In this document: positions 839-34,811 of the stretch, piece by piece | How the letters are laid out: each line of letters begins with the position of its first letter | How positions within the stretch are numbered: the stretch's first letter is position 1 | Origin: a virus | Taxonomy: Duplodnaviria; Caudoviricetes | DNA: 64,000 nt | Reading direction: 5' to 3' (one strand) | Virus record (IMG/VR): IMGVR_UViG_3300023174_003901 | Location: 136,247-200,246 of that record | Notes under the pieces: generated by a model | What the model saw: only the letters and a program-made list of their open reading frames with translations | Databases searched by the model: none | What the model was told of the DNA's origin: nothing | Program-made: the position numbers and the translations under genes

Positions 839-2914
839 TTATGATTGGATGATTTGTTTCAACAACGCTAGACGGCTTTCGCGCACAGGTGCTTTTGGTT
901 GCTGTTGTTGCTTGGCTTTTTCTTGTGCTCGGGCTTTTTCACCCACACGCTTAACCATGTCCTGATATTTTTTACCATAGTCGGCTTCTTTAGGTGGCAC
1001 GTAGTCGTCCTTGGCTTCCGGCAATACAGGATCCACATGCTTGCCTAAACGACTACGAATGTGATCTTTTTTGTCTTGGGTAGGAATAAGTTGTTGGACT
1101 GCACGAGGTCTATCTCCAGGCTTCCAATCTTTAACTTTGTTAATTTTATATCCTCTGCCAGGTTCCAACCCAAAAGTTTCTATGTCGCTTTTTGGCAGTC
1201 GAGAGCCAATGGTCACTGGCCCGTCTTCCGCCATGCCTTGCTTAATTGGAGGCAATCCTCTTAACTTGACATAAGCATCAAGAATATCGGATGCAAAATC
1301 TGTATCGTACATGAGCCAGTTTAATCGTTGACGACTTCCTAACTCTTGAATAGCAATGGCAAAAGCATATCGTTGCACTAAATTGTAAGAGGTAAGTTTA
1401 GGATGTTCGGCAAATACTTTTTCTGCTAAATCTTTCGCGTATTTACGGGCAAAAGAACGGCCAAAGCGTTCGCGAATTTTATCTGTTCTTTGTTGTGGAA
1501 TATTGTCTTCGCCTTCGTCCACACCTTGCTCAATCACATCAACACCGGCCTTGCTCTGCGGACTCAACATGCGTGTGATGTCTCTAGCATTGGCTTGAAT
1601 AATTTGCTTGCCAACTTCAACATTCTGTGGAGTAAGTTCTCTAGCCACTTTGTTAATTTTGTCAACGACAGGAAGCACTGGGCTTGGTCGAGAACCAAAC
1701 ATGCCTTCTTCCACGCCCTGGTCTTCAATCTGCATCGGATTCAAAGGATCATCTGTGTAAATAGTTCTTACATCGCTGCCTGCATCACTTAGTAATTCAT
1801 CAATCATGTCACTTACATCAGAATTATGCTGAGCCTGGAATCCGGCACGTTCACCTTGTGTGATATAAATCTTTGCTATTTTTGCTGCCTGATCTAGTTC
1901 AGACCTGCTGTAACCATCTTCGCCGCCAAACCTCTTGTAGTTGGCTAAAATTACTTTGCCTATCTCCGGTCCAGGGTCTGCCTTGGGCGCCGTCTTTTTG
2001 GCAATGCTAATGATTTGATCTAAATCCTCAATTTGATTTGTATTTTCAGGTGGCCCCATGCCTTGCCACACGTCTGAAACATATCCAGGTAATCCTGTGG
2101 TCTGTAAACTCTTGTTTATATCTACAAAAAATTTATTGATTTCCTTCACAGTCTTAACAATGTTTGTTGCAAGATAGGGGTAATTATTTGATGTGTATTC
2201 CTTTGCAGTGTCAAAGAACATTTCAGTAAAGCCCTGGCTTTGCCCAGAGTCAATTGAATCCCATCCATATTTTTTACCAATAGACATTAGTTGTTGTTCA
2301 ACTTGATCGGGAGTAAATTCTATTTTACCACTGAGAAATTGGTCAGGGTCGCCGATGTTGGTTGGTATTGGTTTGCCATTGCGGCTAACACCTTTGATTT
2401 TTTTTGACCCTTGCTCACTTGCAAAACTCACTGCTACATATCCAGTTACTGGAACATATTTAGGAGTTGATTTTTGTATGTTGCCCATCATCTTTTGAAA
2501 ACGTGGGTCGTCCGTTGGACCTTCCTCTACACCTTGCTCGTCTAGGCCACGATTGTGACGCCACTGACGAACGCTCTTGCCCCGGTCACGTGCGCTGCCT
2601 AGTTTGGGTCTTAGGTCGCCTCTTTTTTCAGTCACGTCTTGCTCGCCAAAGTCATCTGCCAACCGATCAAACACAATTTGTTCAATGCGTTCAAAGTCAT
2701 CGTCTGGATGGAGACCTGCGTCAATCACAACATCGTCATACATGTCTTGCACATATCGGCCAGCAGGAGTGTTGGCACTAAACAACTCATACAATGCGTC
2801 AAAGTCTTCGCGGGCCACAATGTTGCGCAGTTCCGCGTCAATTTCACTCATCACGCCTTCAGTCATGTCTTTTTCAAACACTTGGGGTAAGTTAAAAAAT
2901 TCGTTCAGTATCAT
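839..2914 (-). CDS. modular putative internal head (virion cargo) polyprotein
   Basis: 691 aa; leader MILNEFF; repeated linkers EQDVTE, EQGVEEG, DQGVEEG, EQGVDEG, KQGMAED. Confidence 0.6.
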   Translation of the reverse strand: MILNEFFNLPQVFEKDMTEGVMSEIDAELRNIVAREDFDALYELFSANTPAGRYVQDMYDDVVIDAGLHPDDDFERIEQIVFDRLADDFGEQDVTEKRGDLRPKLGSARDRGKSVRQWRHNRGLDEQGVEEGPTDDPRFQKMMGNIQKSTPKYVPVTGYVAVSFASEQGSKKIKGVSRNGKPIPTNIGDPDQFLSGKIEFTPDQVEQQLMSIGKKYGWDSIDSGQSQGFTEMFFDTAKEYTSNNYPYLATNIVKTVKEINKFFVDINKSLQTTGLPGYVSDVWQGMGPPENTNQIEDLDQIISIAKKTAPKADPGPEIGKVILANYKRFGGEDGYSRSELDQAAKIAKIYITQGERAGFQAQHNSDVSDMIDELLSDAGSDVRTIYTDDPLNPMQIEDQGVEEGMFGSRPSPVLPVVDKINKVARELTPQNVEVGKQIIQANARDITRMLSPQSKAGVDVIEQGVDEGEDNIPQQRTDKIRERFGRSFARKYAKDLAEKVFAEHPKLTSYNLVQRYAFAIAIQELGSRQRLNWLMYDTDFASDILDAYVKLRGLPPIKQGMAEDGPVTIGSRLPKSDIETFGLEPGRGYKINKVKDWKPGDRPRAVQQLIPTQDKKDHIRSRLGKHVDPVLPEAKDDYVPPKEADYGKKYQDMVKRVGEKARAQEKAKQQQQPKAPVRESRLALLKQIIQS

Positions 2915-3591
2915 TTGGCTTCTTCCACGTAGTCTGCACTAGAGTCTGGCTGCACAGCCGGACGTCTGGCACGGTATAGATTCACTGCCATCTCGGCTTC
3001 ATCTAATTCTTTGAAACTGGATGGCATGCTTCGAGTGCCATTGTGAATGGTAAACCCTCTGCGTTGATCGCCGTGTATCTCTAGTACTGAACCATCTTCT
3101 AGCGGAATAGTCTTGACAGGTGAACTTGCAGGCTCAGGAATGGTACTAACTTGGCCTTGTCCTGGACGCATCTCATCTACTTCAACATCTTCTTCTTGAC
3201 TGTCAGGATCTGTGGGATCATTGTCTTCAATGTCTCGAACTGCTTTGTCTTTGAGATCTTGATCTACTTTGACTTTGTCGGCCAACTGATCCAAATAGTG
3301 TGTTAGGTCTTTCTTGACCTTCGAAATCATGTCTTCTTCAATCTCGGACATGGTTTCTGCCAGGGGCATTTGCCCCACTTCTACATCATCACCAAACATG
3401 TAGCCAGCCGGGCTTGCTTTCCGATTGGCATCGCCGCCTAGTACAGGTCCTTGCTTGGGCATTTTGAACAGGGCCGGCATCTGTGGCACTGATTTCTGTT
3501 GTGCGTTCAAGCCTTTCTTGACTGTGGCGGGAGTTGTCTTTCCCTCAATCAAGTCCAAGCGTTGGAGGATGCTGTAGATATCGTCGCTCAT
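2911..3591 (-). CDS. acidic putative head-associated protein
   Basis: Start revised to 3591 (ATGA overlap with the dps stop); several [ILV]xE sites. Confidence 0.55.
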   Translation of the reverse strand: MSDDIYSILQRLDLIEGKTTPATVKKGLNAQQKSVPQMPALFKMPKQGPVLGGDANRKASPAGYMFGDDVEVGQMPLAETMSEIEEDMISKVKKDLTHYLDQLADKVKVDQDLKDKAVRDIEDNDPTDPDSQEEDVEVDEMRPGQGQVSTIPEPASSPVKTIPLEDGSVLEIHGDQRRGFTIHNGTRSMPSSFKELDEAEMAVNLYRARRPAVQPDSSADYVEEAK

Positions 3592-4028
3592 GCTCGTTCG
3601 ACTTTCAAGTAACTGGTCAGTTGCCAACGATATTTGCCATGAGCACTGAGTCGTTCTGCAATGAAGTTAGCAATACCTTGTTCGTTGGCGTCATTGGCTT
3701 CTGCAAAGCAACGATTCAACAAATCCAACATCTGATCATTGTTGGCCTTGAGTTCTTCTAACATGAGTCGAGCACGGGGAATCTTTGTCTGCCCTGAGAT
3801 CTCAGTGAGTTCGCTAAACCGCTCAAAACTTGCAGGCGAATATTCACCTAGGTAGCGGATGTATTCTGCTGTGGGATCAATGGCTGAGTAAGCATCTTCA
3901 TATATCTCTTGAAAGAACCCGTGGAGTTCGCTGAAGTCTGGCCCTTCTACATTCCAGTGGAAGCCATGGGCTTTCAAGTAGTAAGCAAAATTAGTTGCTA
4001 ATAGAATTTTTAAACTGTCCGCGAGCAT
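3588..4028 (-). CDS. dps: Dps / DNA-protecting ferritin-like protein
   Basis: KAHGFHWNVEGPDFSELHGFF...D..AEYIR ferroxidase signature; 146 aa. Confidence 0.92.
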   Translation of the reverse strand: MLADSLKILLATNFAYYLKAHGFHWNVEGPDFSELHGFFQEIYEDAYSAIDPTAEYIRYLGEYSPASFERFSELTEISGQTKIPRARLMLEELKANNDQMLDLLNRCFAEANDANEQGIANFIAERLSAHGKYRWQLTSYLKVERA

Positions 4029-4203
4029 TTTTGTTCCTTTTGTATTCCTGGGGCGTGTTAGGCGTCAGGTCCCTAGTATATTTACCACTTAACATTGATC
4101 CGCCTGATCTTGCGACCATGCCCAAGGGCTGTGCGATAGTGGCTATACTACCTGCACTTGAGGTGGCAGCAGACGAATTTTCCAGGATTTCACGTGCTCT
4201 CAT
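3991..4203 (-). CDS. small protein with capsid-targeting-like leader
   Basis: MRAREILE then S/A/G-rich segment; AAGGA SD. Confidence 0.55.
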   Translation of the reverse strand: MRAREILENSSAATSSAGSIATIAQPLGMVARSGGSMLSGKYTRDLTPNTPQEYKRNKNARGQFKNSISN

Positions 4204-4492
4204 GGGGATATATCCTTAACATAGTATTTTTTATTCTTGCACTGGGTGGGCCTGAATCCACACGCAGGTTTTTAACTGTTAATCGGGCTTGACTGGGTTC
4301 AACCAGTTCATAGCGTATGTCGTACTTGCCTGGCTCAGCATACACAGGAATCAACTCTTCCAAATACTGTTCCTGCCAGATGTACGTGCGTTCCACAAAC
4401 AGTTCGTTGCCCACAAATAATCTATACACAGGCGGCCGATCCTTCCAGTCACAGTAGACATCACACTTGATCATGACATGCTCGCGGCTCAT
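4190..4492 (-). CDS. hypothetical beta-rich protein
   Basis: 100 aa, translationally coupled on both sides. Confidence 0.6.
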   Translation of the reverse strand: MSREHVMIKCDVYCDWKDRPPVYRLFVGNELFVERTYIWQEQYLEELIPVYAEPGKYDIRYELVEPSQARLTVKNLRVDSGPPSARIKNTMLRIYPHEST

Positions 4493-6009
4493 TATTCGCT
4501 CTTGTTGCCCCAGTTGGCAGCACCTTTTTTACGACACTGAACCAAGGCTCCGGACGCATAGGCCGACGGCCATACTTTGTATCTGCTTTTTACTTTGTAA
4601 TAACAAGCATCTTGTTTTTCATTTATCATCAACTCACTGAACATGGGGCCGCCACAGTTGGGACAGTGTTGTTCCTGCACAGATTTATCCTTAAGGCCCT
4701 GCACCGCAGTTGTGCGTCGGGGATCAGGAGCAGGTGCAGTGTCGGCACTGGGCAAGAACTTGACTATTGATTGCTTGGTCAGTGGACCCAATACACCATC
4801 CACATCTAAATTGGCATTGAATTTTTTGTTCAGCATCTGTTGTATTCTGCGGATTTCGTCTGAATTCTTTTGGCCTAGTGTTTCGTTAACAAATTCTTGT
4901 ATGGTATCTTTTGCTACGTCTTGCTGACCTGGTAATGTATCAGAAACGGTTATCATATTTTCAGGAACTATTTGTACGGGAACGCGGCCTTGGTAGCCTG
5001 CTACTTGATAGGCCAGGAACCGGTGATTGCCATCTATTACAAAAAGTTGTCCATTATCGTTCCACACCAGCAAAGGTTTTAACACACCATTTTGTTTTAA
5101 TTCTGGTAAAAGTTTGTTAGTTACCCAATCAGCAATTTTAGGATCTTTCATTGATTTATGCTTTTCCCACATGCGCAATTTATTGAACGGTACCAAGGTA
5201 GACGGCAAACTTTTCTTGATGTTATCATCTATTGTGGCACCTCTATGATTGGTATACACAATCACTGGTTTTTGTTCTGACCCTTCTGCTACATCTTCAT
5301 TTTTCTTTTTGTTCTTTACACAGTTGGGATACCTTTTGCCAAACATGGTTTTCATGCCTTCTTTGTGATAGCCTTTCCAGCAGGCTTCTTCTAAATCCAC
5401 GCCCTCGTCAGTTTTCTTGTTGGCATTGATGTAGGCACGATACACCGCGGCTGCTGATGCCTTGCCGGCTGCCCGGGCACGTTGTTCCATGGCCACTGCG
5501 GCCTGTATCTTGTGTGCATGGCTCCGACCACTGTTGCGTATCTTTGCAACACTGGCACGTGCGTCTTCAACTGTGGCAAACTTCAAGCCAGTTATGGTGC
5601 CTCGAGGATTCTCATCTGTGTATAAATCACTATGTTTCTTTGAATCAGCAGGTTGCCCTGGTTTCCTAGCAATTCGTGGGCTTTCCGTCACAGGCCGTTG
5701 CCAGGCACGGGCCGGAACGTTAAGTGTTTTTTCCAAATGTTTTAGTGAAGCATTTGTCAACAAGTCTGTGCTGTCTCTACCGGGTTGATAATACCACTTG
5801 CCACTTTTGGTTTGTCTTAGCCCCATAATCTTTAAATCAAGATGGTTGAAACTGCGGCCACCTCGAGCCACATCAAAGAAGTAGAGTGTGTCAGCAGGGT
5901 TGGTCACTGATTCTGTCTTGGGCTTTTTGCCGGCCTTTCGCATGGCAATGGCAATAGCGGCCTGCTGTGCAGGGTTGGCTGCTTCTGAGAAGAAATCACC
6001 GAGTATCAT
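4492..6009 (-). CDS. modular polyprotein: basic mini-domains + ParB/Srx-like + peptidoglycan-binding-like + Zn ribbon
   Basis: Leader MILGDFFSE; PLLV...VIDGNHR; LDVDGVLGPLT; CPNC; linkers VTE/LEE/VAE/VQE/INE. Confidence 0.65.
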   Translation of the reverse strand: MILGDFFSEAANPAQQAAIAIAMRKAGKKPKTESVTNPADTLYFFDVARGGRSFNHLDLKIMGLRQTKSGKWYYQPGRDSTDLLTNASLKHLEKTLNVPARAWQRPVTESPRIARKPGQPADSKKHSDLYTDENPRGTITGLKFATVEDARASVAKIRNSGRSHAHKIQAAVAMEQRARAAGKASAAAVYRAYINANKKTDEGVDLEEACWKGYHKEGMKTMFGKRYPNCVKNKKKNEDVAEGSEQKPVIVYTNHRGATIDDNIKKSLPSTLVPFNKLRMWEKHKSMKDPKIADWVTNKLLPELKQNGVLKPLLVWNDNGQLFVIDGNHRFLAYQVAGYQGRVPVQIVPENMITVSDTLPGQQDVAKDTIQEFVNETLGQKNSDEIRRIQQMLNKKFNANLDVDGVLGPLTKQSIVKFLPSADTAPAPDPRRTTAVQGLKDKSVQEQHCPNCGGPMFSELMINEKQDACYYKVKSRYKVWPSAYASGALVQCRKKGAANWGNKSE

Positions 6010-6272
6010 GATTTTTTCCTCTTTGTAGACACATTGATGGCTGGGCCTGAGCGTTCAGGATTGGGATCTTGTTTGCGTTTGCGGCTAGCGGCACTTGCAC
6101 GACCTTTCTTGCCCAGTGAGTGTGCCTTGGAGGCAGGCAAGCACTTGGGTTTGCCTTCAGAATCTGATCCTCTGGCACAATCGCCGCGGATTTTACCATC
6201 AGGACCAAATCGTACCCATTTGTCTTTAAACCACTTGCGTAGGTTTTCGTTCATGAATTCATCGGCTCTCAT
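6006..6272 (-). CDS. small basic protein with capsid-targeting-like leader
   Basis: MRADEFMNE then NLRKWFKDKWVRFG...C..G....GKPKCLP module. Confidence 0.7.
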   Translation of the reverse strand: MRADEFMNENLRKWFKDKWVRFGPDGKIRGDCARGSDSEGKPKCLPASKAHSLGKKGRASAASRKRKQDPNPERSGPAINVSTKRKKS

Positions 6273-6277
6273 ATGTT

Positions 6278-6283
6278 TACTTA
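6278..6283 (-). promoter_or_regulatory. late-promoter-like TAAGTA
   Basis: 5 nt before ATG 6272, no SD. Confidence 0.5.
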
Positions 6284-6296
6284 GCCCTGTCGGCTT

Positions 6297-6767
6297 TTAC
6301 CTTATTCTGTGCAGTAGATAAACTGTGGTGTTGGCCATGTCACTGCGATCCAATCTATAACCCCAGGCCTGAGCATAGCGTTGCACCAGGCGATCATAGA
6401 GATTGCTTCGGCTCATGGGTTTCTGTCCAGGCTCAACATCTTTGTCGGCTGTGAAACGCAGGGTTTCAGGCTGTTCCATTTCTATGAATTGACCAATAGC
6501 GGTCAACACTGTGGCAAACACTCGCTGAGCATCACCGGCTCCGGAAATGTCCAGGCGATTGTCGCGCCAAAATTCAACTACCCAATCTTCATTGTCGGCC
6601 ACATCAGAATCAGTATAGAAATTGATTGTGAGATTGGTGCCATCTGGCAGTCGTGCTAAGGCATCATATCTAGGATCCTGTTCAGCACCGGGCTCGTCCT
6701 GATTGTTGTCCCAGTGAAATGCATAGGGTTGGTCAAATGCTTCTAAGATAATATCTGTGACCCTCAT
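6297..6767 (-). CDS. hypothetical protein with capsid-targeting-like leader
   Basis: MRVTDIILE leader; ATGA-coupled. Confidence 0.6.
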   Translation of the reverse strand: MRVTDIILEAFDQPYAFHWDNNQDEPGAEQDPRYDALARLPDGTNLTINFYTDSDVADNEDWVVEFWRDNRLDISGAGDAQRVFATVLTAIGQFIEMEQPETLRFTADKDVEPGQKPMSRSNLYDRLVQRYAQAWGYRLDRSDMANTTVYLLHRIR

Positions 6768-8206
6768 TTTTTCTTTGCCTTTGCTCTACCAGCCTTCATA
6801 TTGGCCAACCAGTGTGCCATGCGTTGCTTTTCACCTGAACTATTTTTAGCAGTTTTTCTCAGACTGCTTACTGATGCCTTGGTGTTCACACCTGAACGCT
6901 TGGCAAGTCCTTTGCGGCCAGGATTCTTGCCATCAGCAAAGTTTTCTGCTACACCTTGCTTGGGAATCAACAATTCAGGCATACGATACTCACTGACATC
7001 TACTGGATATGGCTGTAGTGATGCTTTGTATAATTCGGCATACTGTTGTTTTTCTTCGGATGTCTTGGCTCTGTAAAACTTGTTGGCAATGGCCATGTCG
7101 CCCACCAAAGTTCCTGGTGGAATTGAAATCTTTTTTGGACCATAGTATTTTAATTTGTCAGAATCTTTGTTGGTCAAACTGTAAAAGGTTGATTCCCATT
7201 TGTCCGGGTGCAAGGCATATTGTGCTGTTGTTCTTTCTGGCACAAACTCTGCAAGTGTATCTGCACCAGGATGAAATTTACCTAACTTGGATAAACTTAT
7301 AGCAGTATCATTGCTTTCGCCTTCCGCAACAACCGGTTTGACAGGAACATAGGCAGGCACACTGGTCATGCCTGCTTCTACCGCGGCTACAGCACGATGG
7401 TTGCCATCAATGATCCAACCCTGTGAATCAACCACAATGGGCATACTTTTTAACACTGATCCAATCCGTGGTATCAATTCTTGAACTTTGTCATTGTCCA
7501 CCCAGTTCACACGATTGTAAGGATCCGGTTCTTCGCCATCAGGATCCAAGTTCAGTTGTGACAAGGGAATACTCTTTAATTCCCACTCAGGATGATCAGT
7601 TATGCTGTATTCAATGTCAAATGCTTCTGGAGCATGAGCACGTTTGACATAATCAAGCACTTGGTCGGCCGCCATGGATTCTGTTATGCCTGGCCTGCTT
7701 TGTGCCACGGCCACATAGGCAGGACCAACGTAGCCATCAGGATACCGGGCAAAGTGTTGTATGGTTCTATGCCAACCTTCCAACAGTTCATAACCGTTGC
7801 CAAATTTAATTAATATTGCAGGTTCTCGACTCACACCGCCCTGTTGTATCAATGCCGCTTGTGTGGCATGTCTTTCAGCATCTTTGGGTATGCCCATACC
7901 CATGTCACTGGTGCCGCCTGCACGACCAATTAACTTTCGTTTGCTCTTCGGCTCAAACATGTCCATGGTAAACTTCATGTTGGGTACAAGTTGCCAAGGG
8001 TTGACATTAGGACTTAGTCCTGCATCTGCGATCATTTCGATAATTTCATCTTTGACTGCTCTACTATCAGTGGTGTAATTTTTATTTTTACCGCGACCTT
8101 TGTACAACCAGTCTTGCACAACATATTCTGGCCATGTGGGAACAATGCTTCGGATGTATTGATACATCCTGTCTCTGAGTTCTATTAAAAATTCACTTGC
8201 TCTCAT
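6764..8206 (-). CDS. modular polyprotein with two ParB/Srx-like domains and a basic C-terminal mini-domain
   Basis: MRASEFLIE; LLEGWHR and IIDGNHR motifs; linkers PGITE, PVVAE, KQGVAE. Confidence 0.7.
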   Translation of the reverse strand: MRASEFLIELRDRMYQYIRSIVPTWPEYVVQDWLYKGRGKNKNYTTDSRAVKDEIIEMIADAGLSPNVNPWQLVPNMKFTMDMFEPKSKRKLIGRAGGTSDMGMGIPKDAERHATQAALIQQGGVSREPAILIKFGNGYELLEGWHRTIQHFARYPDGYVGPAYVAVAQSRPGITESMAADQVLDYVKRAHAPEAFDIEYSITDHPEWELKSIPLSQLNLDPDGEEPDPYNRVNWVDNDKVQELIPRIGSVLKSMPIVVDSQGWIIDGNHRAVAAVEAGMTSVPAYVPVKPVVAEGESNDTAISLSKLGKFHPGADTLAEFVPERTTAQYALHPDKWESTFYSLTNKDSDKLKYYGPKKISIPPGTLVGDMAIANKFYRAKTSEEKQQYAELYKASLQPYPVDVSEYRMPELLIPKQGVAENFADGKNPGRKGLAKRSGVNTKASVSSLRKTAKNSSGEKQRMAHWLANMKAGRAKAKKK

Positions 8207-11200
8207 ATCATCACCGGCAACACTTCAATATCTGCACCTGGTGCAGGGGATAACGATCCTTGACGACGTTGATCCTGCAACCAAGTTTGTGCAATGCGAT
8301 TGGCATCTGCTTGATTGTTGCCTACACCACGGAAGCGCCATACTTCTTCGCCATCAATCATGACTCGCCACTGTCCACTAAAACTATTGCCAGGCGGTGC
8401 CGAACTGGCCTGATCTGTGGTGCCAAACAAGTCTCTGAATGAGTAATCCGTGTTGCGGCCATTGGTACGGTCCGGGAAGTTCTGTGCCACATCCATGGGA
8501 ACTTCGGGAATTTCCTGCTGTGCCGCAACTGGATTGAATATCACCTGCAGACTCAGTTGACGGGCATCAACACCATGTCTGCGGGCTGTGTCGTCTCGTA
8601 CCGCCAGGGCCTGATCCTGACTGGCACCACGTACGGTGTTGAGTGTCTCGTCAGTCTCACGATCCACTATGCGCCAGTCACGTGGAATTTGAGAAGGTTG
8701 AGGTCTGATCTCTTGGAATCCGTAGTCTTCAGTAGTTGTGGGCAGGCCAGCGGCTGCCAGCCACTCTCCATAAATTCTGTTGGCATCTCTGCGATCGTCA
8801 GCACGGAATCTAAACACAGGGTTAGTATTGAACCGATCCACAACTGCATAGTTGGCGTTGGTTGATTGACTTGGCAAGCCCAGGCGGTTCTCCATGTCGG
8901 TCTGTGTGCCTACGTTGGCCCCACTGCCTGTACCTCTAGTTCTCACACCGTAGAGATCGTGCCGTCCAGTGGAAATAAGTGCCATGGCTTGACGTTGTGC
9001 CGCGCCACGATCAGTTATGGGTTGTCCGCCCTGAAGAAGATTAACCGTACTGTTGCCAGTTTGTCTGTTGTAAACTTCCCAAGGCCCAGGTCCGGTAGGC
9101 CGCAAAGGGTTGGACGCGGCGTCTTGATCGGTATTACCGCTGCCATCCACAGGTCTAGCACCAAACAACAAGCGAGCATCTACTGTGCCTATGCCGTGGG
9201 GACCAAAATTGATATAATCATCTAATCTTGTGTTTACATCTGATTGATTGCGAGCAGAGAATTCAGTGTCGGGGACGGCCTCACCAGTGCGTCTATCGAA
9301 CAGTTCATAGGTTCCTGTGCCGGTCTGTGGTGCGCCAGGTTTGTCTGGTTGTTCATCGTAGGGCCGTAAAACTTCAGCATCCATTTGAGCCAGAGTGTTG
9401 ACCAAGAGTGGTTCGCCCCATTCTTTTGCAGCCTTCTGTTTGGCTTCTTCTTCTGAGGTAGCAACCACTTCCACTGTGTAACTATATTGGCCAGCATTCT
9501 TGCCGTATTTGTAAACTTTCCACCACATTTTTTGGCCGTCAGTCTTGCCACGTTTGATATTGCGTTGTAACTGTGCCTGTTTGATAAAACTACGCAGGGC
9601 CGCTTTGGGAATCTTGCCGGCCACATAGTCACTAAAGTACTTGATGGTGTCGTCATCTCGGTTGTTTTCAGTCAACATTTTGTAGAGTTTGGTCAGGTAC
9701 TCTTGACGATACATTTCAGGATTTAGTGCCGCACTCATGGCCACAGTAAATCTCAACAGAGTGTTTTCAATCTTGTCAAAATTTTCGTCCAACCAGTCGC
9801 CACCGGGTGAGCGGAATTCAATGTGTCCATCCTTGGTGTTGATTGATGTATACTTGCTGGTGATGCCTGAGTGTATGGCCTTGCTGGCCAACTGATCCAA
9901 GTTGCCCTTCATCTTGTCCAACAACTGGGCGGCATTGTCAGGATTGTCACGCACAGCCCGTTTCACAATGTCCAGTGCTGATTTGGCATAGGTGTTGCCA
10001 CTACGACCAAATGCATCCAGCACATATTTGTCACCCATGAGCAGGGCCAGTTTAACAAAGTCCAAGTTTTCTCTACTGTAGTCCGGCACAGAGATATTGA
10101 TGTGCAGGCCAGTTGAATCATTGGTGTAACAACCATACTCCTTGGCCCAGCGTTTGACTTTGTTCAAGTCGCTGAGTATTTCATCAATAGGCAAGGGTGG
10201 ACTCACAAACTCCAGGCCTTGATCGTTGGGATCATCTGGTTCCAGGCTGCCATCTGGTTCCACCACATATCGTATTTGAGTTGGGCTGGGACGGATTGTA
10301 CTGCCTGAGTGATAGTTGCCACTGGCTCTGACATCGCGACCAATGGCATTTTCAAACTCTTGTGCCACATCTTCAATGCTGGCTTCGCCACCGCTTTGGG
10401 GGTCGCTCCAGTGCGGCCAACTCATGCTGTAGGCATTTTCAATTTCGCTCATGTTACTTAGATCTGCACCATCCAACCAGTCGCTTTCGTCATAACTTTC
10501 TTGATTTTCTTCGCGGAACTCTTCGTAGGCTGTTTGATATTGATCACTCACAGGATCAGCATGAACATTGGCAGCATATTCTTCCAGGGCTTCTGTGCGT
10601 TCCAGGTCAGATTTTTCCTCTGGATTCCACTCTGACTCGTCTACGTTTTCTTTAACCCATTGATATATGTATTCCTCACCCCCACTGTCCCAGTCGTCGG
10701 AGATCTTTTGATCCAACCATTCTGTATAGTCGTTCCGCATGCTGTCACGCATCTCATCGCAACTGCGGCGACTGTTCCAGTCACCATCATAGAAAAAGTC
10801 ATATGCATCCTGTATGCTACGGCAACGTTGGTCGTAGTCGTAGTCGGGTTCCTGGTCGGCATCACCGCTGCCGCCTTCAACATTGGGCACAATCATTTCA
10901 AATTCCATACCGGCTATGGCGCCGGTCTTGGCAGCCTCTCGACGCAGGTTCTTTGAACCCATATTGATTTCAAACAGGTCTTGTTGTTTGAATTGAGCCA
11001 GTTCCTCTGCTAAACTTTCGTTTAGTTTGGCGGTCAACAATGCAGGACGACCTTGAGCGTCTGTTTGTAGTCCTAGTTTGTTGGCTTCTTTGCCCACAGC
11101 ACCTGGTCGAACGTCTCGAGTCAAGGCCATGATAAAGCGTGGATCACGGGCCTGTTTCTTTGTGGGAATGTATCCTGAGGCTTCCTCCAATGGCACATGG

Positions 11201-12300
11201 GCAAACATCTCAGGATGTTTCTCTGCCCAGTGACGCATGATGCGACCTGCCATGGCATTGGCTTCATCTTCATAGGGACTGCCTGTCTCTCCGGCATTGT
11301 CGGGTAGTTTTTGTTTCTCTGCTTGCTTGCGATGTGTAAACTCATGGGCCATGGTTCGCAGGATGTCTAGAGTGTGGCGGCCTGCTGTGGCCAAGTGTAG
11401 CACATTGTTTTCGGGCTCATATTGACCAAACGATCCTGTCTGTTCACTCCAGTCTGTGCTGGTATGCAATTCAATACGGGGTGATTTCTTGATACCCAGG
11501 TACTCTATACAACTCTGTGCAAACTGATTGATAGTGTCTTGTAGTCCATCTTCAGACTCTGTGGTAAAGCCATAAGTCACATGTGGCTTGGCACGTTCAT
11601 CAATACTGAGTTCTTGGTCCTTGGCAGCATTTCTGGCATCTACTAACTTTTGAATATAACCTTGTGTGCGCAACATCTTGAATGCAAGATTCTCAGGACC
11701 AAACTCGCCATGCTCATCAAGACCGCTTTGGCGTAGTTGTCGAATCTTGGCCATCAAATCAGCCATGACCGCATGGTCTTGAGTCTTGATAGCATCTTGG
11801 ATGCGTTGTTTTAAATCTTGATACTTGCTACGAGTGTTTTGATCCACAACATCAGCACGTTGACGACGTGGTACTTGAATCCAGTCGTTGCGGAGCAAAC
11901 TGTATTCACCTTGTGTCACATGTGGTTGGTCTACATCTTGCACATACAGTTCAACATCATAGCCGCCAATCTTGATGTTGTGCTGATTGTTATATGCGTA
12001 CTTTTTGGCATCAAACAATTCACGATATACCTCATCATTGGGTATGTCAACCACAAGGTGCAGGTCTATGTCTGAATTGGGGGTATATGTGTAAGCGGCG
12101 TTTGATCCGCTGAGTGTGATGTCTTTTAGATCGAGATCTTTCACGCCCAGTGTTGCACGAAAATCATCTGCAATTTTCATCAGTGCGTCACGCACTTGGG
12201 GCTTCAAATGCTCGTCCTGGCCCCATATTCGGGGGTTTAGACGAGCATTGAATTTTACAGCGTCGGAAAGTTTATAGCGGTCTAACTCATGGAGATTCAT
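8203..12300 (-). CDS. Pol-beta-like nucleotidyltransferase + HExxH metallopeptidase + putative amidoligase + C-terminal repeats
   Basis: GSNAAY...SDIDLH; AHEFTH; GMEFEM / EPDGSL / GLEFVSPP / TGLHINIS; 1365 aa. Confidence 0.75.
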   Translation of the reverse strand: MNLHELDRYKLSDAVKFNARLNPRIWGQDEHLKPQVRDALMKIADDFRATLGVKDLDLKDITLSGSNAAYTYTPNSDIDLHLVVDIPNDEVYRELFDAKKYAYNNQHNIKIGGYDVELYVQDVDQPHVTQGEYSLLRNDWIQVPRRQRADVVDQNTRSKYQDLKQRIQDAIKTQDHAVMADLMAKIRQLRQSGLDEHGEFGPENLAFKMLRTQGYIQKLVDARNAAKDQELSIDERAKPHVTYGFTTESEDGLQDTINQFAQSCIEYLGIKKSPRIELHTSTDWSEQTGSFGQYEPENNVLHLATAGRHTLDILRTMAHEFTHRKQAEKQKLPDNAGETGSPYEDEANAMAGRIMRHWAEKHPEMFAHVPLEEASGYIPTKKQARDPRFIMALTRDVRPGAVGKEANKLGLQTDAQGRPALLTAKLNESLAEELAQFKQQDLFEINMGSKNLRREAAKTGAIAGMEFEMIVPNVEGGSGDADQEPDYDYDQRCRSIQDAYDFFYDGDWNSRRSCDEMRDSMRNDYTEWLDQKISDDWDSGGEEYIYQWVKENVDESEWNPEEKSDLERTEALEEYAANVHADPVSDQYQTAYEEFREENQESYDESDWLDGADLSNMSEIENAYSMSWPHWSDPQSGGEASIEDVAQEFENAIGRDVRASGNYHSGSTIRPSPTQIRYVVEPDGSLEPDDPNDQGLEFVSPPLPIDEILSDLNKVKRWAKEYGCYTNDSTGLHINISVPDYSRENLDFVKLALLMGDKYVLDAFGRSGNTYAKSALDIVKRAVRDNPDNAAQLLDKMKGNLDQLASKAIHSGITSKYTSINTKDGHIEFRSPGGDWLDENFDKIENTLLRFTVAMSAALNPEMYRQEYLTKLYKMLTENNRDDDTIKYFSDYVAGKIPKAALRSFIKQAQLQRNIKRGKTDGQKMWWKVYKYGKNAGQYSYTVEVVATSEEEAKQKAAKEWGEPLLVNTLAQMDAEVLRPYDEQPDKPGAPQTGTGTYELFDRRTGEAVPDTEFSARNQSDVNTRLDDYINFGPHGIGTVDARLLFGARPVDGSGNTDQDAASNPLRPTGPGPWEVYNRQTGNSTVNLLQGGQPITDRGAAQRQAMALISTGRHDLYGVRTRGTGSGANVGTQTDMENRLGLPSQSTNANYAVVDRFNTNPVFRFRADDRRDANRIYGEWLAAAGLPTTTEDYGFQEIRPQPSQIPRDWRIVDRETDETLNTVRGASQDQALAVRDDTARRHGVDARQLSLQVIFNPVAAQQEIPEVPMDVAQNFPDRTNGRNTDYSFRDLFGTTDQASSAPPGNSFSGQWRVMIDGEEVWRFRGVGNNQADANRIAQTWLQDQRRQGSLSPAPGADIEVLPVMI

Positions 12301-12305
12301 GAGTG

Positions 12306-12311
12306 TATTTA
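12306..12311 (-). promoter_or_regulatory. late-promoter-like TAAATA
   Basis: 5 nt before ATG 12300, no SD. Confidence 0.6.
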
Positions 12312-14345: not shown

Positions 14346-14351
14346 TATTTA
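14346..14351 (-). promoter_or_regulatory. late-promoter-like TAAATA
   Basis: 5 nt before ATG 14340. Confidence 0.6.
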
Positions 14352-15347: not shown

Positions 15348-15989
15348 GCCGCGGGCCACAATGGGCAGGGTCTTTTTTACAATGCCCGGAACTGCCATGT
15401 TAATCAGAAAATCTGCTTGGGGCTCGTTGTGGTCCACAAAATAGTTGCCCATGAGCCACATGCGTCGGCCTTCTACTAGCATTTGAAATCCTGGACTCAG
15501 TCTAAATTGATCTGGTCTAGCCTGAAAGTACCCACGAAGATTTTGAAGTTCGTGGTCTCTCAGCCAACGTTCTCGAAAGAATGTTCTGTAACTGTGTCGG
15601 GGATTCTTTAGAGTGACCGCATCGGGCTGTAAACTCACACTGACCTGGGTGCAATTAGTAACCACTAGTCCACCAACACCATTGAGATTCTTAAAATCCG
15701 CAGGATGGTTGGTGTAAAGATACATGGCATGTGTGCTGACTGTGCGTTTGAAAGGATTCGGACGACACAGCAAGTAGTCACACACACCAATCAAATCATG
15801 CTGTTCTTCTTCGGTTATTTTTTGTCGAAAATTCCCTGACGGCGGCCATGCATTGCGATAATGTATAGATTTTAAAGCCTTGATAGGATCCAAAACTCTC
15901 AGCACATTAACGTTCTTTAAGAAAAAAGAGATGCAGTAATGATACTGTCCAAAGAACAGTTGATTGCGTTCAATCGGCTTAAACTTCAT
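15345..15989 (-). CDS. hypothetical protein
   Basis: Start revised to MKFKPIE (15989), overlapping the clpA stop. Confidence 0.6.
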   Translation of the reverse strand: MKFKPIERNQLFFGQYHYCISFFLKNVNVLRVLDPIKALKSIHYRNAWPPSGNFRQKITEEEQHDLIGVCDYLLCRPNPFKRTVSTHAMYLYTNHPADFKNLNGVGGLVVTNCTQVSVSLQPDAVTLKNPRHSYRTFFRERWLRDHELQNLRGYFQARPDQFRLSPGFQMLVEGRRMWLMGNYFVDHNEPQADFLINMAVPGIVKKTLPIVARG

Positions 15990-18246
15990 TGGCAATCCTG
16001 ATAATGCCATCATCTCCTACTATAGTATCCGCTCTGGGCGTGATATCAAAATGCACAGCGTCATCTGCCATGGTAGCCATGATATCACAATCGCTCAGGC
16101 GCTCAAACAAGATCTTCTTGGATAGCGGTACACGAATAAGTTCGTCAATTTTACGACTGAGTGGTCTCGCACCCATCTTCGAATCATAGCCCTTGAGAGC
16201 AAGCATGTCAACGACTGATTCGGAAAGATTGAGACGTATACCTTTTGTATGCAAACTTGTCTTGAGTTCGTCCACAAACTTGACCACAACTTTCTTGATG
16301 GCCAAGGTGTCCAGTTTGACAAACTTGCAGATTTGATCGATACGATTACGTAGTTCGGGTTTAAAAAAGTTCTTAAGTGCTTTATCATCTTCGCCTGTCT
16401 TTTCAAAACTACCAAATCCAATGTTGTTGGCTTCTGAATCCTGTGAGCCCAAGTTTGATGTCATAATAATGATACAGTTCTTGACATCTACCCGCTTGCC
16501 ATTGCTTGAAGTAATGTGTCCTTCGTCCAGCATCTGTAGCAGAATGTTTGAAACATCTTGGTGTGCTTTTTCAATTTCGTCAAACAAGATCACAGCAAAA
16601 GGATTCTTGCTGATATCTGAAATCAGTTTACCACCACCAATATTGCCATCTTCAAAGCCCACATAGCCCGGAGGAGCACCAATTAAACTTGATACTGTAT
16701 GACGCTCTTGATACTCACTCATGTCGTACTTGAGCAGGTGCATGTCTAAGTTTGCGGCCAGTAGTTTGGCCAATTCTGTTTTACCTGTACCTGTTGGGCC
16801 CAGGAACAAGAAACTGGCCATCGGACGATTAGGGTTGCCAATGCCCGAGAAGTTGATGTACACACGCTCTAGTACAGAGTCTACTGCGCCATCCTGTCCA
16901 TACAGTTTCTGCTTGATGTTTGATTCAAGATCCACAATCTTGGCAGAACGTTCGTTCTGCAAGCGATCCACAGGTATACTGGTCACCCGGGCCACTTGTG
17001 CCATGATCAAATCTTGGGTCACAGTGAGTTGGCCCTGATCTTTCACACGCTCTCGAGCACAGGCCGCATCCAACAAGTCAATTGATTTGTCAGGGTTCTT
17101 CTTGTCGTGTATGTAACGTCCACTCAGTTCCACTGCGGCGGTCATAGCCTCCGTGTCAATCAGCACATTATGAAACGTCTCGAGCCTGGGAGATAAACCA
17201 ATAAGAATTTTCTCTGTGGTGTCACGATCTGGCTCATCGATTGCCAAGCGGTAGAATCGACGCATAAGCGCCCGATCCTTTTCAAAACTCTCATAGTATT
17301 CTTCCCATGTGGTTGACGCTACAACTTTTAAACTGCCCCGGGTGATAGCCGGCTTTAACATGTTGGCAAAGTCCAAGGCGCCATTTGACCCTGCTCCAGC
17401 ACCTTGCATGGTGTGTGCTTCGTCAATGAACAAGATACACTTCTTCTTGCTTTCTAAAGCCTGGATCACCATCTTGAACTTTTCTTCAAACTCGCCGCGG
17501 TACTTGCTTCCTGCCAACAGTGACCCGATCTCCAATGACCACACTTCGTGATCCTTCAAGAATTCAGGCACACGTCCGGCTGAGATTTCTTGTGCTAGGC
17601 CTTCCACGATACAAGTTTTGCCCACACCAGGATCGCCCACCATGAGCACATTGGCCTTGAAGCGTCGAGCCAGCACAGCAATCATTTCTTCCAGTTCAGT
17701 AGCACGACCAATCAAGGGTTCCAGTCGATCTTTCTGTGCCATAGCAGTAAGACTCACACAATGCTCGTCCAGCACTTCGGTGGCCTGACGATCGCTCATA
17801 CGGTTGGCTTCTCCTTGAGCATAGTTAACTTGCCAGAACTCCACAAACTCCTGTTTGGTCACTCCGTACTTGAGCAAGAAGTAGTGTGAATGACTGTTGC
17901 CTTCGCCCATGAGCGCAAGATACAGGTCCACAGTAGTAACTGATCTCCGTCCGGTAAACAGCACCTGTGTCAAGGCACGATTAAATGTGCGTTCCAGGGC
18001 TGTGGTTTTCCTGGGCGTGATATCTGGGTCAGTTGACACTAGACTTTGACAACTGTCTAAGTAAGCACACAGTTCGGTTTCGAACATGGCCACATCTGTG
18101 CCAAATTTAGTTAGGCAGCGACGAAATGGTTCGTGTCTAATAAGGCTCAGTAACACATGTTCAGTCAACACATATTCGTGTTGCCAGGTGCGGGCAATTT
18201 TGACCGCGTTTTCGATAATACTTTCAATTTCTGGGTTGTGTTGCAT
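15979..18246 (-). CDS. clpA: ClpA-like AAA+ chaperone/protease ATPase subunit
   Basis: Clp N-domain; GDPGVGKT and FIDEAH; second AAA GPTGTGKT, FDEIEKAH; SLIGAPPGYVG. Confidence 0.93.
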   Translation of the reverse strand: MQHNPEIESIIENAVKIARTWQHEYVLTEHVLLSLIRHEPFRRCLTKFGTDVAMFETELCAYLDSCQSLVSTDPDITPRKTTALERTFNRALTQVLFTGRRSVTTVDLYLALMGEGNSHSHYFLLKYGVTKQEFVEFWQVNYAQGEANRMSDRQATEVLDEHCVSLTAMAQKDRLEPLIGRATELEEMIAVLARRFKANVLMVGDPGVGKTCIVEGLAQEISAGRVPEFLKDHEVWSLEIGSLLAGSKYRGEFEEKFKMVIQALESKKKCILFIDEAHTMQGAGAGSNGALDFANMLKPAITRGSLKVVASTTWEEYYESFEKDRALMRRFYRLAIDEPDRDTTEKILIGLSPRLETFHNVLIDTEAMTAAVELSGRYIHDKKNPDKSIDLLDAACARERVKDQGQLTVTQDLIMAQVARVTSIPVDRLQNERSAKIVDLESNIKQKLYGQDGAVDSVLERVYINFSGIGNPNRPMASFLFLGPTGTGKTELAKLLAANLDMHLLKYDMSEYQERHTVSSLIGAPPGYVGFEDGNIGGGKLISDISKNPFAVILFDEIEKAHQDVSNILLQMLDEGHITSSNGKRVDVKNCIIIMTSNLGSQDSEANNIGFGSFEKTGEDDKALKNFFKPELRNRIDQICKFVKLDTLAIKKVVVKFVDELKTSLHTKGIRLNLSESVVDMLALKGYDSKMGARPLSRKIDELIRVPLSKKILFERLSDCDIMATMADDAVHFDITPRADTIVGDDGIIRIANEV

Positions 18247-18280
18247 GTGATTGTGTCCTGAAGAGGTTGTCATACAATTG

Positions 18281-18309
18281 ATTATACATGAATAGGGCTG
18301 GGCAAGCAA
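18281..18309 (-). promoter_or_regulatory. sigma70-type promoter for clpA
   Basis: TTGCTT-N17-TATAAT, extended TG. Confidence 0.6.
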
Positions 18310-18324: not shown

Positions 18325-18330
18325 TACTTA
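18325..18330 (-). promoter_or_regulatory. late-promoter-like TAAGTA overlapping the dnaJ stop
   Basis: The TAA is the dnaJ stop codon. Confidence 0.35.
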
Positions 18331-19119
18331 GCCACCAATTTCTTGTTTGATAGCAGCCATTAATTCTGGAGAAACTGTGGCGGGCATGGTGGCTTGTAGT
18401 CGAACCAACATGTCTCCGCGTGTGCCTGAACGATCCGGTAAACCTCGACCCTTGGCACGTAGTAGTGTTCCGGGTGCAGTATTGAGAGGAACTGTCAGAG
18501 CCAAATGGTTGCCCAGAATGTCTGTGACTGCAACGTCACCTCCGGCGACCAGACACCAAAATGAGACAGGTGCTTCAGTTATCAAAGTGGCACCGTTGCG
18601 TTGCCAGCGTGGGTTAGGGTGGATTCGGTAAGTGATCACCAGGTCCTGACCACCCGGAGCAAGATTGTCGTATTTCACATGATCACCATCTTCGATGCCA
18701 TTGGGAATGTTTACTTGTACATTGTGTGCGCCTGTATGTGTGCCCATGCTCACAGTTCTAGGTCCAGGGTAGGCCACATCCTGTAAGGTGATCCAAAGAG
18801 TCATTCTTGAGTGTTGAGCACGTGGTGGGTGCTGTTGTTGAAACTTGGCGCCAAACATGTCAAATATGGTATTGAAATCAAAGTTGGCATTGAAGTTTGG
18901 TCCGCCGCCGAACCCGCCGAACTGTGGTTGTGGTGAGTCATACTGTGACCGTTTGGCCACATCGCCTAACACATCATAGGCGGCTTGTATTTCTTGAAAC
19001 TTTTGAGTATCACCACCCTTGTCTGGATGATTTTTACTGGCTAGTTTGCGAAAAGCCCGTTTGATTTCGTCAGCAGTGGCAGTTCGAGCAACACCTAGCG
19101 TTGCATAGTGATCGGGCAT
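18328..19119 (-). CDS. dnaJ: DnaJ/CbpA-type co-chaperone
   Basis: J domain with HPD (NHPDKGGD), G/F-rich linker and DnaJ_C region, no Zn finger. Confidence 0.9.
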   Translation of the reverse strand: MPDHYATLGVARTATADEIKRAFRKLASKNHPDKGGDTQKFQEIQAAYDVLGDVAKRSQYDSPQPQFGGFGGGPNFNANFDFNTIFDMFGAKFQQQHPPRAQHSRMTLWITLQDVAYPGPRTVSMGTHTGAHNVQVNIPNGIEDGDHVKYDNLAPGGQDLVITYRIHPNPRWQRNGATLITEAPVSFWCLVAGGDVAVTDILGNHLALTVPLNTAPGTLLRAKGRGLPDRSGTRGDMLVRLQATMPATVSPELMAAIKQEIGG

Positions 19120-20335: not shown

Positions 20336-21109
20336 TTACGGATGTAGTGTGCTGTAAATTACACCACTATTGGTCATGGTAAAGTTGTTGTTGCTAGAAT
20401 CAGCCAGGTACGTGCCGGCGGAATTCACTTGTAGCAACAATGAAGTGTTGGCTATGTTGGGCAATGGCGCTGACGGAGCAGTGAATCCTGAAGTGTACAG
20501 GGCCGACTTGGTCACACGCACACTGCTCATGTAGCCATTAAAATATCTGCCAGCGGAACTGGATCCCAGTGTCAATTGATCAGTCACTTGTGATGAACCC
20601 ACATTTGTAGTAATGATATTGGCGCCTGACGCTTGATTTGTTTGCAAGGTACCATTCACAAACAAGTAAACGTTGGGTCCATTTATGGTCATGGCCACAT
20701 AGTACCAGACGCCTTCAGACAGTTGTGTTGTGGTTGCCACTAATTTGTTATATGAACCATTGTATATAAACAGTTGCAAATAACCATTGCTCTGCACATT
20801 CCATCCCCAAGGAGTGGTGGCCAGGTCTGCTGAGTAATTGCCTATGATCCAACTTTCTTCGCCGGTTTGACCGGTCTTGGTTCCATTGAATGAAGTGATG
20901 TTGATAAATGCTTCCAGCGTGAATACACTTGAAGTGGTCAATTGCCCGCCGGTCAGCAGATTGATGTTGGTAGAACCTGGGCTACTGACGGGTGTCTGTA
21001 GATACGCGGCAGCCGGAGTAAAATTCATACTGCCGGTGGCAACAGGTCCGCCACTTATTGAGATGCCTGTTCCAATATTGATTCCGCTGCCGATACTAAT
21101 TCCCATCAT
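20336..21109 (-). CDS. LamG/concanavalin A-like virion protein
   Basis: FTLEAFI...WYYVAM...LFVNG...FNGYMSSVRVTK. Confidence 0.8.
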   Translation of the reverse strand: MMGISIGSGINIGTGISISGGPVATGSMNFTPAAAYLQTPVSSPGSTNINLLTGGQLTTSSVFTLEAFINITSFNGTKTGQTGEESWIIGNYSADLATTPWGWNVQSNGYLQLFIYNGSYNKLVATTTQLSEGVWYYVAMTINGPNVYLFVNGTLQTNQASGANIITTNVGSSQVTDQLTLGSSSAGRYFNGYMSSVRVTKSALYTSGFTAPSAPLPNIANTSLLLQVNSAGTYLADSSNNNFTMTNSGVIYSTLHP

Positions 21110-21122
21110 GTGCTCCTTCTAA

Positions 21123-21128
21123 TATTTA
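21123..21128 (-). promoter_or_regulatory. late-promoter-like TAAATA
   Basis: Directly follows the stop of the upstream gene; same TAATAAATATT context as 20323. Confidence 0.55.
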
Positions 21129-21848: not shown

Positions 21849-21857
21849 GGTTTGTCC

Positions 21858-34803: not shown

Positions 34804-34811
34804 TGGGTACC

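Follow-up and report, generated by a model that had tools for sequence, protein, structure and literature searches.

A candidate head-packaged multi-enzyme polyprotein in a T4-like giant lake phage

The final part of a 200-kb phage record in IMG/VR (IMGVR_UViG_3300023174_003901, labelled G000 here) encodes a protein of 1365 amino acids (aa), labelled P0001, in which three enzymes and a series of repeats are strung together in one frame. The stretch that was analysed, 64 kb in length and spanning positions 136,247 to 200,246 of the record, is referred to as the window, and coordinates are those of the window unless they are marked G000. As a preliminary description of the window had proposed, P0001 is specified by a single ATG-started open reading frame (ORF) at 8203..12300 on the minus strand (G000 144449-148546); its product has a mass of 154 kDa and a pI of 4.9. 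Near-identical copies of the gene occur in lake and freshwater metagenomes of several studies, including a copy with 0 differences in an independent lake metagenome study (run X3), and the gene is therefore no assembly artefact. A megablast search of the gene against 50,697 phage records returned no match, and phmmer with the whole protein against PDB sequences returned nothing meaningful.

PHROG scans of the large ORFs recovered a T4-type portal, gp5- and gp6-like baseplate proteins, a gp46-like nuclease and a gp43-like family-B DNA polymerase in the record. A prohead protease of the Peptidase_S77 family, to which T4 gp21 belongs (PF03420; 87.9 bits, above the cut-off), is encoded at G000 23906-24349 and adjoins the portal gene (G000 25667-27445). 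Judging from this gene content the source is a giant lake phage of the T4 superfamily, and a completeness estimate of 58% puts its genome at ~345 kb. The features of the P0001 gene, in the direction of translation, are the following.

12306..12311, minus strand: late-promoter-like TAAATA in the sequence, 5 nt before the ATG (hexamer at -11..-6), context CGGTAAATACACTC-ATG.
12286..12300, minus strand: residues 1-5, M-N-L-H-E, a candidate short propeptide ending in L-x-E; [LI]-x-E in 38/39 homologues, model confidence (pLDDT) ~46.
11593..12252, minus strand: Pol-beta-type nucleotidyltransferase with a helical C-terminal half (aa 17-236); PF01909, phrog_36119 and fold matches.
11596..11604, minus strand: joint 1, I233-D-E235, at the end of the nucleotidyltransferase; kept in 38/39 homologues, within disordered segment 233-249.
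11206..11553, minus strand: minimal zincin (gluzincin) domain (aa 250-365); HEFTH at 11332-11346, third ligand E344, and fold matches.
10969..11205, minus strand: linker 2 (aa 366-444) with joints L371-E-E373, L426-N-E428 and L442-F-E444, kept in 32-39 of 39 homologues.
9541..10968, minus strand: glutamine-synthetase-like amidoligase (aa 445-920); PF12224, phrog_2443 and fold matches.
10342-10815, minus strand: acidic helical insert within the amidoligase (aa 496-653, 158 aa); pI 4.05, 46 Asp+Glu, pLDDT 85-90.
8206..9540, minus strand: six beta-beta-alpha-beta modules of ~50 aa each, from the secondary structure of the AF2 model.

The preliminary description had read the protein as a fusion of a Pol-beta-type nucleotidyltransferase, an HExxH peptidase and an amidoligase, and all three assignments are borne out by Pfam or fold matches and by invariant active sites. 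NTP_transf_2 (PF01909) is found at aa 54-106 (25.5 bits against a cut-off of 21), and the N-terminal 232 aa match the function-unknown family phrog_36119 (E 4e-36), a type of nucleotidyltransferase that cyanophages, Lak megaphages and Maribacter phages encode as a separate gene. Its active-site residues are the G65-S66 loop, D77-I-D79 and a third acid, E117. The sole Pfam match of the HExxH region is DUF6782, a putative metallopeptidase, below threshold (18.3 bits against a cut-off of 27, E 0.0015); in the AF2 model, where this domain reaches pLDDT values of 80-90, the motif H319-E-F-T-H323 lies on a helix formed by residues 310-329 and E344 on a second helix (342-361). Amidoligase_2 (PF12224) covers aa 641-835 at 29-31 bits (cut-off 22), and the motifs of the ligase are E466/E468, EPDGSL (681-686), EFVSPP (697-702), TGLHINIS (730-737) and HIEFR (826-830).

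When the modelled domains were compared with known structures using Foldseek, AadA-like, zincin and glutamine synthetase/YbdK folds were matched. For the nucleotidyltransferase the hits were AadA/AAD(9), CdnE and MNT, at probabilities of 0.77-0.97 with E-values of only 1e-3 to 1e-2, and a comparison with TENT5 gave a VIA Z of 6.8; the modelled fold resembles that of aminoglycoside adenylyltransferases with two domains, AadA/AAD(9), and has a looser likeness to CD-NTases, MNT and TENT5. The zincin matched abylysin, selecase and Wss1 at probability 1.0 (0.94-1.0 with IrrE included), and VIA Z values of 6.2-8.9 were obtained for YbeY, SPRTN, Wss1, BepA and the ArdC peptidase domain, the highest of them (YbeY, SPRTN and Wss1, Z 8-8.9) being middling values. 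The top matches of the amidoligase were glutamine synthetases (probability ~0.9) and YbdK. As the statistics of these matches are modest, they show fold and not function. The catalytic residues were followed in alignments of 39 homologues for the N-terminal part and 35 for the C-terminal part, with identities down to ~52%. G65, S66, D77, D79 and E117 of the nucleotidyltransferase and H319, E320, H323 and E344 of the zincin are invariant, as are E466, E468, E681, E697, H733, E828 and R830 of the amidoligase; the loss of catalytic residues in homologues, which the preliminary description had named as grounds for giving up its reading, was not observed.

The same description had the three enzymes in their places and overlooked two large elements, the 158-aa insert of the ligase and the six repeats that make up the C-terminal third. 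The insert separates the first ligase strand (G-M-E-F-E-M) from the E-P-D-G-S-L strand, and a similar acidic insert is present in distant homologues from the phages RsoM2USA and Atu_ph07. The repeats (aa 925-980, 998-1050, 1074-1121, 1151-1197, 1207-1253 and 1307-1364) occupy the final 445 aa and follow roughly the motif W-x-V-x-D-x-x-G-x-E-V-x-R-F ... D-A-N-R-x-A-x-x-W-L. No Pfam family covers them: the individual repeats gave sub-threshold matches only (DpnD-PcfM at E 0.049, others weaker), and an Atlas feature search with the last repeat found no usable match. A profile of the module run against 1.84 billion proteins retrieved 469 clusters; in the best 150 of these the module is mostly C-terminal, and those that could be identified are amidoligase proteins or fragments. 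On these matches the module appears to be confined to this amidoligase family. The number and kind of repeats differ among close relatives of P0001, and we suspect that they bind the target of the ligase.

The xE sites that had been noted between the domains prove to be conserved Glu-ending joints at module boundaries. P0001 contains 12 [LI]-x-E motifs in all, 6 of which are kept in at least 80% of homologues, and five of these six (residues 3-5, 233-235, 371-373, 426-428 and 442-444) mark the N-terminus and the two linkers; the segments that the model leaves disordered (1-3, 233-249, 369-424 and 441-444) hold most of the conserved sites. Several stand-alone nucleotidyltransferases stop 8-10 aa past the E-L-S-[LI]-x-E motif of joint 1. 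The C-terminal end, E-V-L-P-V-M-I in P0001, belongs to a strictly conserved and family-specific E-V-x-P-V-M; 136 relatives end one residue beyond P-V-M, and 59 of the 69 chains that continue past the last repeat read P-V-M-x-E-[S/G/D], often with a second V-x-E a few residues on. The gp21 protease of T4 cleaves after Glu in L/I-x-E and removes propeptides of 7-65 residues, and the first ten residues of IPIII, its capsid-targeting sequence (CTS), are enough to load foreign or unrelated proteins into the T4 head (PMC9026906; PMC3012670). Cleavage of P0001 at its joints would yield a 27-kDa piece (aa 6-235), a 16-kDa piece (aa 236-373), small peptides and a 104-kDa piece (aa 445-1365).

A late promoter had likewise been proposed for the gene. 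What holds of this proposal is the TAAATA hexamer before the ATG and its enrichment upstream of ORFs; the exact T4 late motif, TATAAATA, has 0 matches in the 64-kb window. Of the 188 ORFs, 23 have a TAAATA at most 40 nt upstream, whereas the two strands together (400 kb) contain only 82 copies; the hexamer precedes a 2632-aa ORF, a baseplate wedge gene, the portal gene and the neighbour of the portal gene. In its extended form, C-G-G-T-A-A-A-T-A-C-A-C-T-C, the motif is identical before the 2632-aa ORF and P0001, and the extended motif also stands before the portal gene and its neighbour. The hexamer is found at exactly -11 in P0001 and six other genes, within the window at 12306-12311 and 14346-14351 (the latter before an ORF ending at 13303). 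T4 spacing would place the transcription start at or beside the ATG when the hexamer is at -11. Since this position leaves no room for a Shine-Dalgarno sequence, leaderless or near-leaderless late mRNAs are suggested. We infer from the motif that TAAATA works as a promoter and that P0001 is expressed late. Lake metatranscriptome contigs match pieces of the gene at 85-97% identity; they derive from relatives, with possible DNA carry-over, and were not counted as transcription.

P0001 is one member of a large and variable family, for which a word-indexed search yielded over 1700 clusters (90% identity), on contigs of which the longest measure 330-350 kb. Aa 1-920 form the conserved core among the relatives, and extra sequence is confined to three sites: the nucleotidyltransferase/zincin linker, the zincin/ligase linker and the C-terminus. 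Insertions reach ~100 aa at joint 1 and 100-250 aa at linker 2 (M48 peptidase, DUF6934, DUF6886), and the modules added overall comprise M48, DUF6934, DUF6886, ADP-ribosyltransferase, GNAT, a dCMP-type deaminase, ParB-N and a GH19 lysozyme with LysM. By analogy, these additions follow the repertoire and logic of injected polyvalent proteins (PMC5512222). Nucleotidyltransferase, zincin and ligase occur together in 107 of 267 family proteins examined. Where the ligase stands alone, its gene opens with a leader of its own: 37 of 38 ligase-only genes start M-[RK]-[YF]-x-[ED]-[IFL]... and reach L-x-E|I-N-M-S within 34 residues, a junction that corresponds to aa 442-448 of P0001. In some relatives the genes that follow P0001 in the window are fused to the family; P0041, for instance, carries ParB, and P0089 the tail of the 480-aa protein.

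Experimental support for a link between this family and the virion comes from a cultured phage. Searches with tblastn found the ligase in only two cultured phages, Ralstonia phage RsoM2USA and Agrobacterium phage Atu_ph07. The Atu_ph07 homologue, gp196 (AUZ94978.1), is 33% identical to P0001 over aa 606-882 (E 2e-35), has the catalytic motifs in common with it and is encoded two genes from the portal gene. It figures among the virion proteins detected by mass spectrometry, where 14 unique peptides cover 30% of it (PMC6102473, Table S5). Its identity was established from gene order and mass, 57.93 kDa computed versus 57.94 kDa reported, with the neighbours gp197 and gp198 also in agreement. The start of gp196, M-R-W-Q-D-I-S-S-K-K-L-T-E followed by L-K-M-N-S-S, has the leader-plus-junction form of the metagenomic ligase-only genes. 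The RsoM2USA proteomics comprised ten gel bands; ORF26, the ligase of that phage, is not among them, which is uninformative either way. Gp196 and ORF26 share with P0001 a homologous amidoligase, the same catalytic motifs and the acidic insert, and both start M-[RK]...L-x-E followed by [LI]-[KN]-M; unlike P0001 they are single-module proteins of 500-524 aa, 27-33% identical to it, that lack nucleotidyltransferase, zincin and repeats.

Two further observations concern Atu_ph07 (MF403008.1). About 22 of its mass-spectrometry-confirmed virion proteins start M-[RK]-W-x-Q-L-[TN]-E, among them the gp53-gp63 array (39484-50592), gp381, gp408, gp482 and gp196, and this start looks like the capsid-loading tag of the phage. 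The gene adjoining gp196, gp195 (locus L013 6130-7122), encodes a Pol-beta nucleotidyltransferase of the G-S...S-D-x-D type, which was not detected in virions; that it belongs to the same family as the P0001 nucleotidyltransferase was considered and rejected, only the active-site motif being common to the two (E 0.02).

Within the window P0001 is part of a minus-strand gene run. Upstream lie genes for DnaJ-like, ClpA/B-like ATPase, cytidylyltransferase-like and glycosyltransferase-like proteins; downstream follow several multi-module proteins and then the DNA polymerase, and the gene order around P0001 is retained on a 334-kb relative (L014). The features of note outside the gene are these.

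18328-19119, minus strand: DnaJ-like protein, adjoining the ClpA/B ATPase; synteny with L014.
15979-18309, minus strand: ClpA/B-type double-AAA ATPase (phrog_4871, E 1e-234).
6764..8206, minus strand: next gene, 480 aa, with ParB-N-like modules, the T4-CTS-like start M-R-A-S-E-F-L-I-E and V-x-E-G joints.
63616-63912, minus strand: GGACT/AIG2-like gene inside the ORF at 63493-63918 (PF06094, 46 bits), 51 kb from the amidoligase.

The stop codon of P0001 overlaps the start of the 480-aa ORF in the sequence ATGA (8203-8206), and the two are probably translationally coupled. The genes downstream of P0001 (691, 238, 146, 100, 505, 156 and 480 aa; 839-8206, minus strand) form one apparent operon with it. 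Several of them open with T4-CTS-like leaders (M-R-A-S-E-F-L-I-E, M-R-V-T-D-I-I-L-E and M-I-L-G-D-F-F-S-E), and their products carry Q-G-V-x-E-G joints between parts together with ParB-N-like modules. The 146-aa ORF (3588-4028, minus strand) has a counterpart on the syntenic contig L014 with a Pfam Ferritin match (Dps-like); judging from this match, its product may be a DNA-protecting cargo protein. Elsewhere in the window, three adjacent ORFs of 249, 142 and 304 aa (33625-35726, minus strand) have the leaders M-N-L-G-D-I-F-E, M-R-Q-Y-I-N-L-V-E and M-R-L-R-E-F and may constitute a second small cargo cluster. Another three adjacent ORFs of ~240-257 aa (20336-22622, minus strand) may be paralogues, since the N-termini of all three are glycine-rich (G-I-x-I-G runs).

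On balance, and with reservations, we favour the reading that P0001 is a late, head-packaged polyprotein which is cut by the prohead protease and whose enzymes are delivered together with the DNA. Four observations speak for it: the late-promoter-like hexamer before the ATG, the conserved [L/I]-x-E triplets at the N-terminus and in the disordered linkers, the gain or splitting of modules in relatives at just these joints, and the presence of gp196 in Atu_ph07 virions. According to this scheme P0001 would be made late and enter the prohead core, where the prohead protease would cut after the Glu of L/I-x-E and free the nucleotidyltransferase, the peptidase, small peptides and the ligase with its repeats. 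The pieces would then be ejected along with the phage DNA and modify host molecules once host ATP and NTPs are available, the nucleotidyltransferase by adding a nucleotide to a hydroxyl, the ligase by forming gamma-glutamyl-type amide bonds and the peptidase by cleaving its target. The purpose would likely be the blunting of host defence or host takeover, as with T4 Alt and the internal proteins.

A number of facts weigh against this reading. The P0001 gene lies ~118 kb away from the portal/protease block, and its neighbours include the DNA polymerase and ClpA/B-like ATPase genes. The start of the protein, M-N-L-H-E-L-D, is conserved and poorly modelled; all 120 best-listed stand-alone nucleotidyltransferases open with the P0001 N-terminus, and M-N-L-H-E may therefore be structural. 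With no more than 5 aa it is short, its second residue is not basic as in the M-R/K leaders, and its score on their matrix is -4.6. Compared with a loading tag, the N-terminus of P0001 is a weaker match than the starts of its neighbours. Of the CTS-like leader that had been claimed for P0001, the conserved L-x-E start stands and a role as targeting tag is doubtful; M-N-L-H-E could be a short propeptide like the seven residues of Alt, or the first turn of the domain. In favour of the reading, 9 of 188 ORFs in the record start M-x-[LIVA]-x-[ED]-[FIL] versus 1.1 expected, five of the nine within 839-12300, a pattern that was defined post hoc. The conservation of [LI]-x-E in the linkers is suggestive and not proof, because the motif is short and common. 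Finally, the homologue detected in virions, gp196, is a distant single-module protein without repeats.

Nor does Atu_ph07 provide a firm general rule for leaders. Its virion list was rebuilt by mass matching along the genome, with candidates for 140 of 140 entries and 137 of them placed. Starts of the form M-[RK]-x-x-[EDQ]-[LIFV] occur in 22 of 129 virion genes versus 20 of 662 other ORFs (any alternative start; odds ratio 6.6), a motif chosen post hoc and represented to a large part (~10 of the 22) by paralogues (gp53-gp62). The pre-fixed pattern M-x-[LIVA]-x-[ED]-[FIL] is not enriched in the virion genes (5/129 versus 48/662), the matrix derived from the leaders of metagenomic amidoligases fails to distinguish the virion proteins of Atu_ph07 from its other proteins, and the presence of [LI]-x-E among the first 13 residues shows no enrichment in the virion set. 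Given these outcomes, the robust fact is the presence of gp196 in virions, and the leader rule is only suggestive.

The most serious alternative, which we nonetheless consider unlikely, is that P0001 is never packaged and acts within the infected cell as a multi-enzyme, whole or processed, with the Glu motifs serving as flexible linkers only; its targets late in infection could be, for example, phage or host nucleic acids, nucleotides, cell-wall precursors or proteins. It draws on the distance to the head genes, on the possibility that the N-terminus belongs to the enzyme and on the non-structural neighbours, which besides the polymerase downstream and the ClpA/B-like ATPase upstream include the cytidylyltransferase-like and glycosyltransferase-like genes. 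ParB-like modules and amidoligases, moreover, occur also in modification systems. Against this stand the physical presence of an amidoligase homologue in Atu_ph07 virions, the late-type motif common to P0001 and structural genes, the cleavable-looking leaders on stand-alone modules and the lysozyme/LysM modules fused in relatives. Proteins that exit the virion commonly bear lysozyme modules, and the alt and internal-protein genes of T4 are also located outside its head cluster.

Somewhat less probable again is the possibility that P0001 is packaged and injected as in the polyvalent model and is processed by its own zincin instead of the prohead protease, or remains uncut, its loading depending not on the five N-terminal residues but on another part such as the C-terminal repeats. 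Both the array of repeats and the conserved C-terminal E-V-x-P-V-M are indeed family-specific, and the P0001 zincin resembles the ArdC, Wss1 and SPRTN peptidases. Among the modules that polyvalent proteins have in common, zincins are the most frequent, and they have been proposed to be autoprocessors (PMC5512222). The presence of a zincin does not, however, imply self-cleavage, because N4 vRNAP and ArdC keep their peptidase domains uncut (PMC5512222). Furthermore, amidoligase-only relatives without a zincin still have the leader and the L-x-E junction, and the joints fit the known specificity of gp21-type proteases, one of which the phage encodes.

The most speculative proposal, to which we would give little weight, is a specific extension of the packaged-polyprotein reading: the amidoligase and its repeats would be an injected ligase, acting on proteins or small molecules, that uses host ATP right after DNA entry for gamma-glutamyl-type amide tagging of host defence or housekeeping targets recognised by the repeats, with the nucleotidyltransferase as a second writer, the zincin as an eraser or cleaver, and the GGACT protein (63616-63912) possibly reversing the tag at a later time. 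To our knowledge such tagging chemistry is not known for any phage. If this were true, the phage would deliver from its virion a post-translational writer kit whose cassettes are swapped in frame at [hydrophobic]-x-E joints, in more than 1700 variants.

Should P0001 be packaged and cut as we favour, T4-type giant phages of lakes would carry strings of enzymes and not just a few small internal proteins, and one grammar, a short leader plus [hydrophobic]-x-E joints, would govern loading, cutting and injection. An ATP-dependent amide ligase and an AadA-like nucleotidyltransferase would join the chemistry of the first minutes of infection, and the more than 1700 clusters at 90% identity would represent a natural library for new anti-defence activities. 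The family would also demonstrate in-frame module swapping between genes and provide natural rules by which foreign proteins could be packed into large capsids. The detection of gp196 in Atu_ph07 virions makes the packaging idea directly testable in culture.

How do P0001 and its relatives compare with known systems? The Amidoligase_2 group was reportedly predicted by Iyer et al. in 2009 to consist of glutamine-synthetase-like COOH-NH2 ligases. P0001 agrees with this group in exceeding the Pfam threshold, in keeping the Glu/His/Arg set and in its glutamine synthetase/YbdK-like fold; it departs from typical members in the 158-aa helical insert, the family-specific repeats and the fusion to two other enzymes. 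The link between amidoligases and gamma-glutamylcyclotransferases that had been anticipated is weak here. No gamma-glutamylcyclotransferase (AIG2/GGACT) or amidotransferase-like peptidase gene is adjacent to P0001, the GGACT gene of the window lies far from the ligase, and GGACT was not found in the two cultured amidoligase phages, RsoM2USA and Atu_ph07, nor in two control phages without amidoligase.

The comparison with T4 Alt and packaged cargo, also drawn in the preliminary description, is reasonable in view of the gp21-type protease, the CTS-like leaders nearby and on amidoligase genes, and gp196 in the virion. P0001 resembles IPI, IPII, IPIII and Alt in its membership of the T4 superfamily, the gp21-family protease, the short N-terminus ending in L-x-E and the late-type motif, and the genes neighbouring P0001 start much like the T4 tag. 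The likeness to Alt extends to the enzymatic nature of the cargo, since Alt is an ADP-ribosyltransferase and some P0001 relatives include such a module. The T4 cargo proteins are, however, single modules, whereas P0001 chains several enzymes in a 154-kDa frame with internal joints; a nucleotidyltransferase, a zincin and an amidoligase are not known as T4 cargo, and the first residues of P0001 are unlike the T4 tag.

With the polyvalent proteins, P0001 shares the stringing together of many unrelated effector domains in a single polypeptide, its origin in a phage with portal and terminase, rapid shuffling of domains between relatives (PMC5512222) and part of the repertoire, namely a zincin and a Pol-beta nucleotidyltransferase in P0001 itself and ART (ADP-ribosyltransferase), GNAT, lysozyme and ParB modules in its relatives. 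Polyvalent proteins are recognised by at least two unrelated effector domains, typically with a zincin among them, and P0001 has three enzymes plus repeats; they are also recognised by fusion or adjacency to MuF/portal or by some other direct tie to the packaging module, which P0001 does not display (portal at G000 25667-27445). An amidoligase or glutamine-synthetase-like ligase is unmentioned in the text of the polyvalent-protein paper, and the nucleotidyltransferases described there are minimal, ArdC-linked and mostly from Firmicutes elements (PMC5512222), whereas that of P0001 is two-domain and AadA-like. Because the paper mentions no amidoligase and its nucleotidyltransferases are of a different kind, the P0001 family is a variant and not a listed member of the polyvalent proteins. 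A further difference lies in the joints of P0001, whose Glu-ending grammar is regular and linked to a protease of the T4 type. Taken together, P0001 is most likely a hybrid of two known systems, the CTS/Alt principle of T4 and the polyvalent proteins that Iyer et al. described in 2017 (PMC5512222).

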